From: Phycisphaerales bacterium
GTDB lineage: Bacteria > Planctomycetota > Phycisphaerae > SM23-33 > FEN-1343
Direction of reading: 5' to 3'
Length of the DNA: 64,000 nt
NCBI GenBank assembly: GCA_003171335.1
Contig: PMYD01000101.1
Location: 6,952 to 70,951 of the forward strand
The notes beneath the pieces were generated by a model. That model saw nothing but the letters and a program-made list of their open reading frames with translations, was not told the DNA's origin and did no database searches. Made by a program: the position numbers and the translations under genes. Position 1 is the stretch's first letter, and the number at the start of each line of letters is the position of its first letter. Below, piece after piece: positions 4,148 through 7,131 of the stretch.

Positions 4148-4252
4148 ACCGGTACGCTAGGGGCGCCCATGAGGGCTGAGACGGCCGGCGGCCGGTACCC
4201 TTGGAACCTGATCAGCAACCCGGAACGGGGCTGCGTAGGGAAGCGACCGAAT
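4148..4252 (+). promoter_or_regulatory. TPP riboswitch (THI element) aptamer
   Basis: The conserved THI-box elements are present in order: GGGGCGCCC, GGCUGAGA, a P3 hairpin, UACCC, GAACCUGAUC and GCGUAGGGAA. Confidence 0.85.
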
Positions 4253-4296
4253 GTGACACGTTGCCCGCCGGCCATGCGGCCGGCGGCGAGTTGGAA

Positions 4297-4330
4297 AACG
4301 CCGGCCCCGAGACCGGCGTTTTTGCTTTTG
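4297..4330 (+). terminator. Intrinsic terminator serving as the riboswitch expression platform
   Basis: The stem ACGCCGG/CCGGCGT is followed by UUUUUGCUUUU. It lies 45 nt downstream of the aptamer and 40 nt upstream of the GNAT start. Confidence 0.6.
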
Positions 4331-4371
4331 AAGGCCGCTGCCGGCAGGCGTGAGGAAAGGGAGCCGACGCG

Positions 4372-4911
4372 ATGAGAATCGACGTGGTGCGTGAGCCCGA
4401 TGTGCCGCCGGCCATCGATGCGGCCATCATGCGCCTCCAGCAGCGGGCGTTCCCCAAGACCGAGTCCTTCGCCCGGTCGCGGTACTACACGCATACAGCG
4501 CGGCAGGGCGATTTTCGCGTGCTGGCGTGGCTGGACGAGGCGCCGGTGGGGCAGGTTGTGGTCATGTGGGCCAACGCTCGCGCGGGCGCGCAAAATCTCC
4601 GCCTGGCGGGGCTGGGCAATGTGTGCTCCGACCCCGATCATCGCAAGGAGCACGCGGCCTCGGCCTGCATCGAGCGGGCGCTGGAACTGGCCCGCCAGGA
4701 GGATGGCGATGGCGCGCTACTGTTTTGCGGGGCCAGCCTGGAAAAATTTTACGCCCGGTTCGGCTTTGAGATTGTGTCAAACGAGGTCTTCTTCACGCAC
4801 CCCGACGGCACCATCTTCCGCCGCAACCACCGTGACATCCGCATGGGCCTGATGCTGAAGGACCAGCCCTGGCCGGCGGGGGATCTGTATCTGGATACGG
4901 AAGACTTTTGA
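4372..4911 (+). CDS. GNAT family N-acetyltransferase
   Basis: The protein has the acetyl-CoA binding fold pattern (RLAGLGNV...HRKEHAASACIERALELA) and ends in FYARFGFE. Confidence 0.75.
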   Translation: MRIDVVREPDVPPAIDAAIMRLQQRAFPKTESFARSRYYTHTARQGDFRVLAWLDEAPVGQVVVMWANARAGAQNLRLAGLGNVCSDPDHRKEHAASACIERALELARQEDGDGALLFCGASLEKFYARFGFEIVSNEVFFTHPDGTIFRRNHRDIRMGLMLKDQPWPAGDLYLDTEDF

Positions 4912-4913
4912 GG

Positions 4914-5042
4914 GATTGCAAATTGCCAATTGCAAATTGCCAATTAAACGGCCGGAAGAACGCGCCGCTTGGAACGCGGGTCTTTCCCGCCGTTTCCGGC
5001 CGTTTCTTCAATTTGCAATTTGCAATTTGCAATTCGCAATCC
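4914..5042. repeat. ~130-bp hairpin element with heptad-repeat arms (ATTGCAA/ATTGCCA x4 opposite AATTTGC x4) and an inner GC-rich palindrome (AAACGGCCGGAA...TTCCGGCCGTTT)
   Basis: This is an inverted-repeat structure read directly from the sequence. A second family member lies at 34778-34889. Confidence 0.8.
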
Positions 5043-5083
5043 GAAGGGGCAAGACCTGGCTCGGCGGACCGGACCCCCATCAA

Positions 5084-5800
5084 ATGAAGATCTCCCACCC
5101 CATCGCGATCAAAACCCTCAGCCTGCTGGCGGCGTGGGTGCTGCGCCTGTGGCTGGGGACGCTGGAGTTCCGCTTCGCCCTGGATGATCCTGGCCTCAAC
5201 CCGGCACACCTGCGGCGGCGGGGGCTGTACATGTTCTGGCACGAGGCGCTGCTGATGCCCGCCTACACGCACAGCCACCGGGGCTTTACGATTCTTACGA
5301 GTACGCATCGCGATGGCGAACTGATCACGCAGATCGTCCGCATGCTGCGCGGCCGCGCCGTTCGCGGCTCCAGCACGCGCGGCGGTGCGGCGGCCGTCCT
5401 GGGTATGATGCGCCGAGCCCGGACGCAGCACCTGGCCATCACGCCGGATGGCCCGCGCGGGCCGCGAAGGCAGATGCAGGCCGGCGCGATTTACCTGGCC
5501 AGCCGCGGGCGACTGCCGCTCATCCCGCTGGGCATCTCGGTCGCAAGAGCCTGGCGGGTAAGAAGCTGGGACCGCACGATTTTGCCGCGGCCGGGCAGCG
5601 AGTGCTGCTATGTGCTGGGCCGGGCCATCGAGGTGCCGCACGAGGCCGACCGCCAGGAGCTGGAGCGATACCGCCAGCTCGCCCAGCAGGCCCTGGATGA
5701 TGCGCAGGAGCGGGCCGAGCGGCTGGCCGCCGGGCAGGGATCCGAGCCGCGACTGTGGACGTTAGCCCAAGTGAACGCTCCGGCAGGAGAGAAGTCATGA
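5084..5800 (+). CDS. DUF374 / lysophospholipid-acyltransferase-like protein
   Basis: The protein matches the DUF374 pattern ([31 protein letters not shown]...ITPDGPRGP). Its stop overlaps the thiC start. Confidence 0.6.
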
Positions 5801-7131
5801 CCACGCAATATCAGGCCGCCCGCGCGGGCACGATTACGCCGGAGATGCTCCGGGTCAGCCAGCGCGAGGGGCTCGACGCCGAACTCATTCGCCGCGAGAT
5901 GGCCGCCGGCCGGCTGGTCATTCCCGCCAACCGGGTGCACCTGGCCGGTGCGGGCGGCTCGAAGGTGCATCTGGACCCGGTGGGCATCGGCCGCGCGCTG
6001 ACCACCAAGATCAACGCCAACATCGGCGCTTCGCCGCTGGCCTCGGGCACCGAGGAAGAATTGTGCAAGCTGGCCTGTGCCCGCCGCTGGGGCGCTGATG
6101 CGGTGATGGATCTGTCCACCGGCGGCGACCTGGTCGCCACGCGCAGCGCCATCCTGGCGGTCAGCGAGGCCCCGGTGGGGACCGTTCCGATTTACAGCAT
6201 GATCCTGCCCGCCCCCGGCCAAATCCGTCCGGTGGAGGAGCTGACGTGCGAGCAGATGCTCGCCGAGATCGAGCGCCAGGCCGCCCAGGGCGTGGATTTC
6301 TTCACCATCCACGCGGGCATCCTGCGCGAGCACCTGCCGGCGGCCACCAGGCGGCTGATGGGCATTGTCTCGCGCGGCGGCAGCCTCCTGGCCAAGTGGA
6401 TGGTGCACCACGGCCGGCAGAACCCGCTGTACGAGATGTTCGACGAGATCTCGGCCATCCTGCGCCAGTACGACGTGTGCTACTCGCTGGGCGATGGCCT
6501 GCGCCCCGGCTGCCTGGCCGATGCCTCCGATGAGGCCCAGTTCGCCGAGCTGTCGGTGCTGGGCGAATTGGTGCAGCGAGCGCGCGAAGCGGGCGTGCAG
6601 GTGATGGTCGAAGGCCCCGGCCACGTGCCGTACGACCAGATCGCCGACAACATGAAGCGCCAGGAGACCCTGTGCGACGGCGCGCCCTTCTACGTGCTGG
6701 GCCCGCTGGTGACCGATGCCTTCCCCGGCTACGACCACATCACCTCGGCCATCGGCGCCACGGCGGCGGCGGTGCACGGCGCTTCCTTCCTGTGCTACGT
6801 GACGCCCAAGGAACACCTGGGTCTGCCGACGGCGGAGGATGTGAAGGCCGGCTGCATCGCCTACAAAATCGCCGCCCACGCCGCCGACGTGGCCCGTGGT
6901 TTGCCCGGCGCGCGGGATTGGGATGATCGCATCTCCGCCGCCCGGGCCCGCTTCGATTGGTCGGCCGTCTTCGCGGAGGCCTTCGACGGCCAGACCGCCC
7001 GCGCTATGAAACAGGCCACCACCGCCGGTGGCGAAGACTACTGCGGCATGTGCGGCAAGGAGTGGTGCGCCCTGCGGCTGAGCCGGCAGGTCAAGACGGA
7101 GCTGGAATCCGCCCCGGCCCGGCGCGATTGA
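5797..7131 (+). CDS. thiC: Phosphomethylpyrimidine synthase ThiC
   Basis: It has a strong full-length ThiC pattern, including the C-terminal CGMCGKEWC radical-SAM-like cysteine motif. A GGAGAG RBS lies upstream. Confidence 0.95.

Follow-up and report, generated by a model that had tools for sequence, protein, structure and literature searches.

A putative TPP-repressed transcription unit with thiC and probable envelope-type passenger genes in an uncultured Planctomycetota genome

Riboswitch regulons have usually been read as functional catalogues, so that the genes located behind a THI box are presumed to serve thiamine. In the Bacillus-type thiC leaders (RF00059), a full-length aptamer is followed by a GC hairpin with a U-tract, and thiC belongs to the controlled unit. 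Two intergenic repeat families are also relevant here, namely the cyanobacterial STRR, which are heptanucleotide tandem repeats, and the enterobacterial REP/BIME, which are palindromes. Finally, the DUF374 family has been described as LpxJ lipid A late acyltransferases (3'-secondary) in Helicobacter, Campylobacter, Wolinella and Rickettsia, and residues W60, H61, D86, D132, W172 and D173 were reported to be essential in LpxJ of R. typhi (PMC6148475).

Here we analyzed a 64,000-nt stretch of DNA (the window) of an uncultured planctomycete, probably a member of the Phycisphaerae, in which a full-length TPP aptamer and a GC hairpin with a U-tract preceded a group of genes that included thiC (Table 1). 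The reading that we favored, at a probability of roughly 0.6, was a single TPP-repressed transcription unit with envelope-type passengers. The identities and positions of its parts, as well as the conservation of their order, were observed directly in the window and its relatives. Our literature search for TPP riboswitches associated with an acetyltransferase, PAP2 or LpxJ in Planctomycetes returned nothing relevant.

Table 1. Features of the thiC locus, in window coordinates
Feature	Position	Strand	Evidence
Promoter-like site, ATGGCA / 18-nt spacer / TATCAT, upstream TG	4115..4144	+	sigma-70-like consensus scan
TPP (THI-box) riboswitch aptamer	4149-4258	+	Rfam RF00059, 57.3 bits, E=1.3e-8
GC-rich hairpin CGCCGGCC-ATGC-GGCCGGCG between aptamer and terminator	4263..4288	+	repeat search, folds
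Expression platform of the intrinsic-terminator type (stem of 10-11 bp, loop of 8 nt) followed by UUUUUGCUUUU	4295..4330	+	repeat search, RNAfold
GNAT acyl/acetyl-transferase, 179 aa	4372-4911	+	PF13527, 42.9 bits
Heptamer-armed palindromic intergenic element, 130 nt	4913-5042	.	repeat search, folding
DUF374 / LpxJ-family acyltransferase, 238 aa	5084-5800	+	PF04028
thiC (phosphomethylpyrimidine synthase)	5797-7131	+	NCBIfam equivalogs, PF01964
PAP2 membrane phosphatase, LpxE-like	7267..8298	+	PF01569, 42.3 bits

Riboswitch, promoter-like site and expression platform

An earlier note on this DNA had placed a THI-box aptamer with a terminator about 1.5 kb upstream of thiC, and both were recovered, the aptamer ending 1,539 nt before the thiC start. 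The cmscan alignment covered model positions 1-105 of 105, and its score of 57.3 bits exceeded the gathering score (54.3) by a small margin; the E-value in Table 1 was computed over the whole 64-kb window, where this was the sole Rfam match. The conserved core (CUGAGA, ACCUGAUC and GCGUAGGGAA) and helices P1-P5 were all present. In L087, L089, L090, L098, L102 and L103, orthologous aptamers occupied the same position, and their scores, in descending order, were 57.9, 57.4, 57.1, 51.9, 50.1 and 41.5 bits. When six aptamers were aligned, the core was invariant and P3 varied, differing on both helix sides between clades.

The promoter-like site ended 5 nt 5' of the aptamer and was the only sigma-70-like match in 3900-7400. 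Moreover, the block CCTGCTATCAT located directly 5' of the aptamer was conserved in the window, L087, L089 and L103. We infer that the site at 4115-4144 acts as the promoter of the unit.

A predicted GC-rich hairpin (4295-4322) with a UGCUUUUG tract was situated between the aptamer and the first start codon, its arms being AAAACGCCGG (4295-4304) and CCGGCGTTTT (4313-4322), followed by TGCTTTTG. A simple consensus terminator scan did not list the terminator at 4295-4330, and a G-U extension of the stem may account for this by consuming one T of the tail. A hairpin with a T-tract was present 3' of the aptamer in six of the seven orthologous leaders (the window, L087, L103, L098, L102 and L090), and the L089 leader had a weaker counterpart. 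In folds of partial transcripts of the window sequence, aptamer nucleotides 4149-4153 paired with 4300-4304 of the terminator 5' arm when the transcript was extended to 4308, and the 3' half of the aptamer apparently paired with about 4298-4308 when it was extended to 4312. The GGCCGGCG/CGCCGGCC motif of the hairpin at 4263-4288 was also found in P3 and in the terminator 5' arm. However, this hairpin was absent from L087 and L103 and was therefore not essential to the platform.

These features were consistent with a terminator/antiterminator switch at 4295-4330. Transcription would start from the promoter ending at about 4144, and the TPP aptamer would form the 5' end of the transcript. With TPP bound, the aptamer would stay folded and the 4295-4322 hairpin with its U-tract would terminate transcription before the first gene. 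At low TPP, nucleotides of the aptamer 3' half or the GGCCGGCG segments would pair with the terminator 5' arm (CGCCGGCC), allowing the polymerase to proceed through GNAT and the heptamer repeats into the LpxJ-like gene, thiC, whose translation would be coupled to it, and probably PAP2.

Genes of the putative unit

The cognate thiamine gene of the putative unit was thiC. Its product scored 597.9 bits with NF009895 (cut-off 410), 573.4 bits with TIGR00190 (cut-off 460) and 582 bits with PF01964, and carried the CX2CX4C motif (CGMCGKEWC, residue 416). A BzaB-type paralogue was rejected because the TIGR04386 score of 476.6 bits was below the cut-off of 700, whereas the ThiC equivalog cut-offs were exceeded. 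Two acyltransferase genes intervened between the riboswitch and thiC, as had been noticed earlier, and the stop codon of the second (TGA, 5798-5800) indeed overlapped the thiC start (ATG, 5797-5799) in an ATGA. No second copy of the DUF374, GNAT or thiC genes was found in the 64-kb window.

The product of the first gene matched only PF13527, PF00583 (29.3 bits) and PF13508 in Pfam. It had 27 homologues at 42% identity or more, followed by a sharp drop in identity, and the family comprised 19 representative clusters at E<=1e-30. The AF2 model (pLDDT 95) had 644 matches in the PDB at E<=0.001; the best 50 of the 644 were all GNAT-fold acyltransferases, and the top 29 fold matches were AAC(2')-Ia/Ic (TM 0.74-0.80). 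The similarity to AAC(2')-Ia and AAC(2')-Ic (PDB 5us1, 1m44) extended over the whole chain (about 180 columns) and included equal size and a GNAT core with a C-terminal extension. In contrast, the fold-aligned sequence identity was just 14-19%, and the motif LGNVCSDPDxR was particular to the thiC-associated subfamily. The protein was thus placed in a narrow GNAT subfamily associated with thiC, and its modelled fold was AAC(2')-like. Membership in AAC(2')-I itself was rejected at the sequence level, as no NCBIfam family matched at E<=0.01; a PDB sequence search at E<=1 returned no AAC(2') chain, and nothing in the family and fold comparisons pointed to aminoglycoside modification. An OlsB/OlsA-type pair for ornithine or amino-lipid synthesis (GNAT with LPLAT) was dropped because the GNAT protein had no PF13444 match.

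The second gene had been described in the earlier note as a DUF374/LPLAT-like acyltransferase; DUF374 is not a family of unknown function but that of the LpxJ enzymes introduced above. The PF04028 match reached 79 bits against a gathering score of 26.8, and the start at 5084 was backed by the N-terminus MK[IL]SHPIAIK, conserved among homologues, of which 3,597 were found. Residues W52, H53, D77, D122, W162 and D163 were the counterparts of the six essential LpxJ residues and were invariant in 32 homologues. The correspondence was established by matching motifs, including SWD, against the translated mutagenesis primers printed in PMC6148475, and D77 was paired with D86 solely by its spacing and an H-x-D motif. 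By domain and residues, the gene was assigned to the LpxJ lipid A late-acyltransferase family. The likeness was drawn from the domain, the motifs and the length: besides the six residues, the protein shared with LpxJ the PF04028 domain, the absence of an HX4D motif and a similar length. Unlike the genes of the characterised enzymes, it was integrated in a putative thiC operon, in predicted translational coupling with thiC. A PDB sequence search returned no solved relative. From the physiological point of view, vitamin repression of a presumably housekeeping lipid A acyltransferase within a single unit would be odd.

Downstream of thiC, the start of the PAP2 gene was uncertain between the ATG at 7267, which gave a signal-peptide-like N-terminus, and alternatives at 7144 and 7327. 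The best PDB sequence match was LpxE (6ebu, E=1.3e-5), with which the protein shared a PAP2 domain with the PSGH motif, a C-terminal SR..H...D-type motif and several predicted membrane helices. However, this match spanned about 65 residues only, the C3 motif was shortened, and the N-terminal ~190 aa were without a match. The interval between thiC and PAP2 contained no terminator-like or promoter-like site, and the unit probably ended with PAP2.

Gene order in relatives and the intergenic repeat element

Synteny in related genomes, which the earlier note had proposed as a check, bore out the arrangement: the order TPP-GNAT-DUF374-thiC recurred in Planctomycetota metagenomes, where five or more other lineages had it. 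It extended to PAP2 in L087, L089, L098 and L102, and L103 followed it up to thiC, where the contig ended. PAP2 was 3' of thiC in every related locus reaching that far, with a 4-nt overlap in L102. Gene order was kept in five other lineages with GNAT and three more without it, and across the eight related lineages examined, DUF374 and thiC were spaced by between -4 and +30 nt. Neighbor-joining trees of DUF374 and ThiC gave clades A (the window, L087, L089 and L103), B and C and were too small to separate gain of the riboswitch and GNAT from loss.

In L090, the riboswitch and terminator were followed by a GNAT remnant (...ALDTEDF*), the gene being deleted to its last codons, so that the riboswitch was located directly before DUF374-thiC. 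Clade C (L092 and L099) had DUF374-thiC-PAP2 and no GNAT, and a riboswitch search in L092, L099, L104 and L105 found none at E<=0.1 to 1. Since both were lost in some lineages, GNAT and the riboswitch appeared to be dispensable. In both clade C loci, a GTATAAC box preceded the start codon by 10-12 nt; in principle, DUF374-thiC-PAP2 could have its own promoter there.

Co-transcription across the window unit was the best reading of the layout in relatives because the order recurred, the GNAT|DUF374 spacers of L098 and L102 were only 15 and 11 nt, and the L090 riboswitch directly preceded DUF374-thiC. The earlier view that the riboswitch headed the thiC-containing unit was likewise upheld, as neither a second riboswitch nor a consensus promoter was detected ahead of DUF374-thiC; between 3900 and 7500, searches for a further riboswitch or other RNA family gave only sub-threshold chance matches and none at E<=5. 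We read the layout as ancestral to one clade and the spacer hairpin as a resident copy of a genome-wide repeat.

The 130-bp hairpin repeat reported earlier was present between the acyltransferase genes, but it was not special to the operon. Its left arm, (ATTGCAA/ATTGCCA)x4.4, and right arm, (CAATTTG)x4.6, flanked a GC-rich centre, the 36-nt arms being 89% complementary, and the predicted fold was very stable (-68.9 kcal/mol, z = -6.5, with 0 of 200 shuffles as stable). An orthologous element was located in the corresponding spacer of L087, L089 and L103; its DUF374-proximal array, (CAATNNG)x5, was conserved and the hairpin was not. Of the four orthologous spacers, those of L089 (z = -0.08) and L103 (z = -0.44) folded no better than shuffles, and a conserved RNA structure was rejected on this ground. 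Further copies were found at 34776-34888, 14407-14509 and 59330-59474 of the window and at 734-857 of L087, and elements of this type separated flgC from fliE in the window and flhA from flhF in L087, gene pairs that we read as co-transcribed. Thus, the hairpin represented a family of intergenic repeats with copies across the genome rather than an operon-specific regulator. In the window and in L087, the element was predicted to fold very stably (-68 kcal/mol); with its GC-rich core and the U residues of its 3' flank, it could act as an attenuator or terminator of transcription.

These heptamer-armed repeats appear to be an undescribed family in these genomes, and a literature search on STRR heptanucleotide repeats gave one unrelated match and nothing relevant. 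In architecture, the element resembled STRR and REP/BIME by its short, A/T-richer tandem units with a 7-nt period, its many copies per genome, its restriction to intergenic positions, frequently separating genes of the same direction, and its paired inverted arrays able to form long hairpins. Unlike in those families, the arrays here were inverted pairs flanking a variable GC-rich centre, and the unit sequence varied among copies (ATTGCAA type, GGCTATA type).

The hairpin was central to an alternative that we considered unlikely, in which the riboswitch governs GNAT only, the element at 4913-5042 terminates or strongly attenuates the transcript, and a separate promoter that does not respond to TPP drives DUF374-thiC-PAP2, as in the riboswitch-free relatives. 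The stability of the hairpin and the persistence of an element between GNAT and DUF374 in each of the four clade A genomes would agree with such a split, as would the existence of DUF374-thiC-PAP2 without a riboswitch or GNAT in L092 and L099; moreover, the negative promoter scan was weak evidence because planctomycete promoters are poorly defined. However, the spacers of L098 and L102 were too short for a terminator and a promoter, and in L090 the riboswitch was immediately ahead of DUF374. In L103, the repeat array extended to the first codon of DUF374, so that a downstream promoter would not fit. The hairpin itself was degenerate in L089 and L103, its outer stem in the window was not followed by a canonical U-run, and the same element type occurred inside flagellar gene runs. 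Finally, the GTATAAC box of clade C was missing from the window.

Possible thiamine connection of the putative passengers and comparison with known systems

Under the favored single-unit reading, GNAT, the LpxJ-like gene and PAP2 would be co-regulated by TPP together with thiC, and by family they would form an envelope-type cargo (an AAC(2')-fold GNAT, an LpxJ-family acyltransferase and an LpxE-like PAP2). Most likely, they were passengers that had been inherited along with thiC in an operon and that are not known to take a chemical part in making HMP-P. A DUF374 scan with a single protein against metagenomes gave five loci, none linked to thiC, and the DUF374 genes at 53-56% identity (L093, L094 and L100) were not linked to it either. 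As a more distant outgroup, we used a profile scan of one-genome-per-species contigs (32-55% identity, with no close relatives among the matches listed); among the 80 Planctomycetia loci listed, none had thiC within 6 kb. Upstream of DUF374, 34 of these loci had a DapF-like ORF and about 30 a large AsmA/TamB-like protein, and many had an XseA-like gene downstream, these names being read off cluster representatives and not from family searches. Since the distant loci lacked thiC and had other recurrent neighbours, they fit DUF374 as a housekeeping gene that was relocated beside thiC in one clade.

All members of the GNAT subfamily with readable context adjoined thiC (seven loci, and further contigs paired with DUF374 matches through their length, 11 contigs in total), and at 32% identity the GNAT of L104/L105 directly preceded thiC without DUF374 or a riboswitch. 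Such exclusive association agreed poorly with a passenger status of GNAT.

We weighed, as a quite improbable alternative, that GNAT, possibly with the LpxJ-like and PAP2 proteins, had a so far unrecognised role connected with ThiC or with the metabolism of thiamine and HMP and that its TPP control was adaptive. In one form, the enzymes would acylate or detoxify a pyrimidine or aminoimidazole amine, provide antivitamin defence, or dephosphorylate thiamine phosphates in the periplasm for salvage; in the other, they would reshape lipid A or the envelope in a programmed response to TPP shortage. Besides the narrow GNAT subfamily, the occurrence of all three pairings (GNAT-DUF374-thiC, DUF374-thiC and GNAT-thiC) spoke for this possibility, as it suggested that GNAT and DUF374 were each tied to thiC and not to one another. 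Furthermore, the block persisted while its flanking genes changed (at least five different upstream neighbours), and the thiamine-repressible periplasmic phosphatases of yeasts provided a precedent. On the other hand, we know of no thiamine step that requires an acyltransferase. The LpxJ residues were all intact in a family that is housekeeping elsewhere, PAP2 was of the integral-membrane, lipid-phosphatase type, and the DUF374 relatives at 53-56% identity were unlinked to thiC. GNAT was lost in L090, and both GNAT and the riboswitch were absent in L092 and L099. The only GNAT-thiC link outside the clade came from L104/L105, which represented one lineage on two near-identical contigs, and the next relative (L106, 29% identity) was not linked to thiC.

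In the clade of the window, most of the THI-box cargo thus consisted of envelope-type enzymes. If their link to thiamine is functional, it points to a new thiamine-connected acyl-transfer or phosphatase step or, alternatively, to a control of lipid A structure by vitamin status in Planctomycetota, whose envelope biology is still debated. If it is accidental, the locus is a documented caution against guilt-by-association annotation from riboswitches. In either case, the thiC-bound GNAT subfamily is a concrete and testable target.

In comparison to the Bacillus-type thiC leaders, the window had the same full-length aptamer, the same GC hairpin with a U-tract and thiC in the putatively controlled unit, and its aptamer likewise followed a -10-like box, at the start of the predicted transcript. 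Unlike in those leaders, thiC was the third gene, 1.5 kb downstream, with GNAT, the LpxJ-like gene and a repeat element in between and PAP2 after it. The riboswitch mechanism is a known one, and its cargo is unusual and conserved within the clade.

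The unit and its leader

An earlier note had described a TPP riboswitch with a terminator-type platform 1.5 kb upstream of thiC, separated from it by a GNAT gene, a hairpin repeat and a DUF374 acyltransferase gene whose stop codon overlapped the thiC start. This arrangement was confirmed and all of the coordinates held; at the gene overlap, the sequence ATGA contained both the stop codon of DUF374 and the start codon of thiC. A PAP2 gene followed, and no terminator-like or promoter-like site was found in the interval between thiC and PAP2. RF00059 was the sole family that the Rfam search found in the 64-kb window. 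The thiC product was not assigned to BzaB since the score with the BzaB model was below its own cut-off; an identical protein was encoded by a metagenome contig of 191 kb in ENA and by several short contigs from JGI.

Features of the riboswitch-led unit in the window
Feature	Position	Strand	Remarks
Sigma-70-like promoter site	4115-4144		ATGGCA, 18 nt, TG-n-TATCAT; ends 5 bases upstream of aptamer
TPP riboswitch aptamer	4149-4258	+	Rfam RF00059, full model length, 57.3 bits (gathering score 54.3), E=1.3e-8
GC hairpin 3' of aptamer	4266-4285		Fold/repeat analysis
Terminator-type hairpin	4295-4322		AAAACGCCGG / CCCCGAGA / CCGGCGTTTT, then TGCTTTTG
GNAT gene	4372-4911		PF13527, 42.9 bits
Palindrome (heptamer-repeat element)	4913-5042		About 130 nt, -68.9 kcal/mol, z = -6.5
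DUF374 gene	5084-5800		PF04028, 79 bits
thiC	5797-7131		ThiC equivalogs above cut-off; CX2CX4C motif
PAP2 membrane phosphatase gene	7267 (probable start)-8298		Downstream of thiC

A consensus scan of the region found no sigma-70-like site other than this promoter site. The block CCTGCTATCAT immediately 5' of the aptamer was kept across clade A, one of three groupings of DUF374-bearing loci and the one that includes the window, which fits a transcript starting at the aptamer. A GC hairpin and a T-tract directly followed the aptamer in six of the seven orthologous leaders, and the sequence of the terminator stem depended on the clade, being of the CGCCGGCC type in clade A and of the GCGGCCGC type in clade B. 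In a partial-transcript fold of the window, aptamer bases 4149-4153 paired with the terminator 5' arm (4300-4304), and in a second one the 3' half of the aptamer appeared to pair with this arm; such pairing would be a candidate antiterminator. We infer that the leader behaves as a terminator-type OFF switch. The orthologous aptamer of one clade A contig (L103, 2165-2311) scored only 41.5 bits because of an insertion of about 40 nt in the P2/P3 region, itself hairpin-forming (CCCCAACGCGAGATGTCGCGTTGGGG), and is an example of variable-arm expansion in the clade.

Families of the encoded proteins

DUF374, formerly of unknown function, is the LpxJ family, whose characterised members in Helicobacter, Campylobacter, Wolinella and Rickettsia are lipid A 3'-secondary acyltransferases (PMC6148475). 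Mutating W60, H61, D86, D132, W172 or D173 abolished the activity of R. typhi LpxJ (PMC6148475). Their counterparts in the window were W52, H53, D77, D122, W162 and D163, a correspondence checked by translating the mutagenesis primers of that study, except that D77/D86 was matched only from motif and spacing. None of the six residues varied across 32 planctomycete homologues, whether linked to thiC or not, and nothing suggests altered chemistry. The named homologues were MAG proteins of Planctomycetota/Phycisphaerae.

The AF2 model of the GNAT was confident (pLDDT 95), and its best 29 PDB fold matches were all AAC(2')-Ia/Ic (TM 0.74-0.80). However, the sequence identity to these enzymes was only 14-19%, and by sequence the protein did not belong to the AAC(2') family despite the common fold. 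Its own subfamily was narrow: 27 proteins were at least 42% identical to it, followed by a sharp drop, and its relatives formed 19 representative clusters at E<=1e-30, against 666 at E<=1e-10 for the wider family around them. The best solved relative of the PAP2 protein by sequence was LpxE (6ebu, E=1.3e-5), the likeness being confined to the catalytic motifs. Judged by family, the GNAT, DUF374 and PAP2 genes are all of envelope type, with thiC as the odd one out.

Conservation of the unit among related loci

The loci were divided into clades by NJ trees, and genomic context was read for a limited set of DUF374 and GNAT homologues. In clade A, the window and the metagenome loci L087 and L089 (DUF374 78% and 74% identical) had the riboswitch, GNAT, heptamer-repeat element, DUF374, thiC and PAP2, while L103 (74%) kept the gene order of the window up to thiC, where the contig ended. 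In clade B, the riboswitch, GNAT, DUF374, thiC and PAP2 occurred with a 15-nt spacer between GNAT and DUF374 in L098 (62%) and an 11-nt spacer in L102 and L101 (62%), PAP2 overlapping thiC by 4 nt in the latter two. A synteny check on GNAT-DUF374-thiC recovered the same order in L087, L089, L098, L101, L102 and L103. The remaining clade B locus, L090 (63%), had the riboswitch with its terminator, DUF374, thiC and PAP2, and only a C-terminal remnant of GNAT that read ALDTEDF-stop, the family terminus being LDTEDF.

Clade C loci L092 (62%) and L099 (58%) possessed DUF374, thiC and PAP2, and neither riboswitch nor GNAT was detected there. In both, a GTATAAC box (5985-5995 and 5185-5195, respectively) preceded the start codon of DUF374 by 10-12 nt; it may be the -10 element of a replacement promoter, whose leader would then be very short. 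No thiC was found near DUF374 in L100 (56%), L093 and L094 (53%), or among the 80 Planctomycetia loci listed (32-55% identity). In the latter, a DapF-like ORF (34 loci) or a large AsmA/TamB-looking protein (about 30) lay upstream and, in many, an XseA-like gene downstream; these names came from reading cluster representatives rather than from family searches. L094 also carried a 6S RNA (RF00013, 53.3 bits; 3388-3545, minus strand) about 1.5 kb from DUF374.

The unit stayed together while its neighbours varied, those upstream including SecA, a hypothetical gene, a ThiF-like gene, a gene with a UVR domain and a sigma-factor/flagellar cluster. The ThiF-family gene (PF00899; L098, 4456-5241) was directly upstream of the riboswitch, outside the regulated unit.

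Reach of the switch and nature of the cargo

We considered it probable (roughly 0.6) that a single TPP-repressed transcript carried the envelope genes as inherited partners of thiC. The alternative that the hairpin splits the unit, setting GNAT apart from DUF374-thiC-PAP2, was unlikely. The hairpin was very stable in the window and L087 and could attenuate transcription, and the clade C loci suggested that DUF374-thiC-PAP2 could have a promoter of its own. However, the clade B spacers were too small for a terminator and a promoter, the GNAT deletion in L090 set the switch directly before DUF374-thiC, and the repeat array of L103 ended at the DUF374 start codon; each of these points argues that the switch reaches thiC. 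So does the outcome of a permissive Rfam search of 3900-7500, in which no second riboswitch was found; by the earlier note, one immediately upstream of the DUF374-thiC pair would have told against its interpretation.

The hairpin was also rejected as a conserved structure since the L089 and L103 spacers folded no better than shuffles (z = -0.08 and -0.44). What was conserved in register in all four clade A spacers was the DUF374-proximal tandem array (CAATNNG)x5. The window held four inverted heptamer-array pairs in 64 kb, with differing heptamer units, and elements of like type lay between flgC and fliE (34776-34888) and, in L087, between flhA and flhF, which we take to be co-transcribed pairs. 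The GNAT-DUF374 element was therefore read as one member of a repeat family that is spread over the genome and tolerated inside operons, which again favours a switch reaching thiC.

In each copy of this intergenic family a variable centre was flanked by a pair of inverted arms, each made up of 4-5 tandem units of 7 nt, and the unit varied by copy (ATTGCAA/CAATTTG versus GGCTATA/CTACAGC type). Besides the flgC/fliE copy, they were found at 14407-14509 and 59330-59474 (also 13304-13337) in the window, at 734-857 and 4475-4499 in L087, and at 3480-3505, 5459-5482 and 6585-6610 in L090. Most were between co-directional genes, VanZ/holA being a further example, and none matched Rfam.

Other repeats were present in the window. 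A non-coding stretch upstream of an ORF (2496-3233) carried a tandem run of four hairpins, each about 23 nt long (CACTTCATCTC-NGA-GATGAAGTG; 2123-2270, plus strand; 39-nt period) and followed by AATCT(T/C)TGCG; the fourth kept the CACTTC...GAAGTG ends with a different interior, and no Rfam match was found. Short intergenic arrays of 8-nt period, of ATTAACGA and GTCAATTA types, were located at 8942-8993 and 11859-11899, one just upstream of a melibiase-like gene starting at 9001 and the other after a GTPase-like ORF ending at 11796 (minus strand). A 324-nt tandem repeat (25397-26511; 3.4 copies, 76% identity) was probably within a large repetitive ORF.

The association of GNAT with thiC is the one observation that resists reading the cargo as a passenger. 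Every member of the GNAT subfamily with readable context sat in this unit, and pairing contigs by their length across the two homologue lists gave 11 GNAT matches on the same contig as a DUF374 match. Even the most distant GNAT recovered (P0147, 32% identity; L104 and L105) was directly upstream of thiC (64% identical), with no DUF374 and no detectable riboswitch and with inverted GCGAATT-type repeats in the 235-nt spacer. Since GNAT-DUF374-thiC, DUF374-thiC and GNAT-thiC all occurred, the tie of each partner is to thiC rather than to its fellow partner. Nevertheless, the linkage was based on few lineages, and the next GNAT relative (29%, L106) was not linked to thiC. A real thiamine-linked function of the cargo was considered quite improbable, and transcription with thiC as inherited partners was preferred.

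The closest analogies of the heptamer-armed hairpins are presumably the cyanobacterial STRR repeats and the REP/BIME elements. As far as our searches show, the cargo of the switch and its conservation are unusual and apparently undescribed in the literature, and the mechanism is a known one, in which an intrinsic terminator follows a TPP aptamer ahead of a thiC-containing operon.
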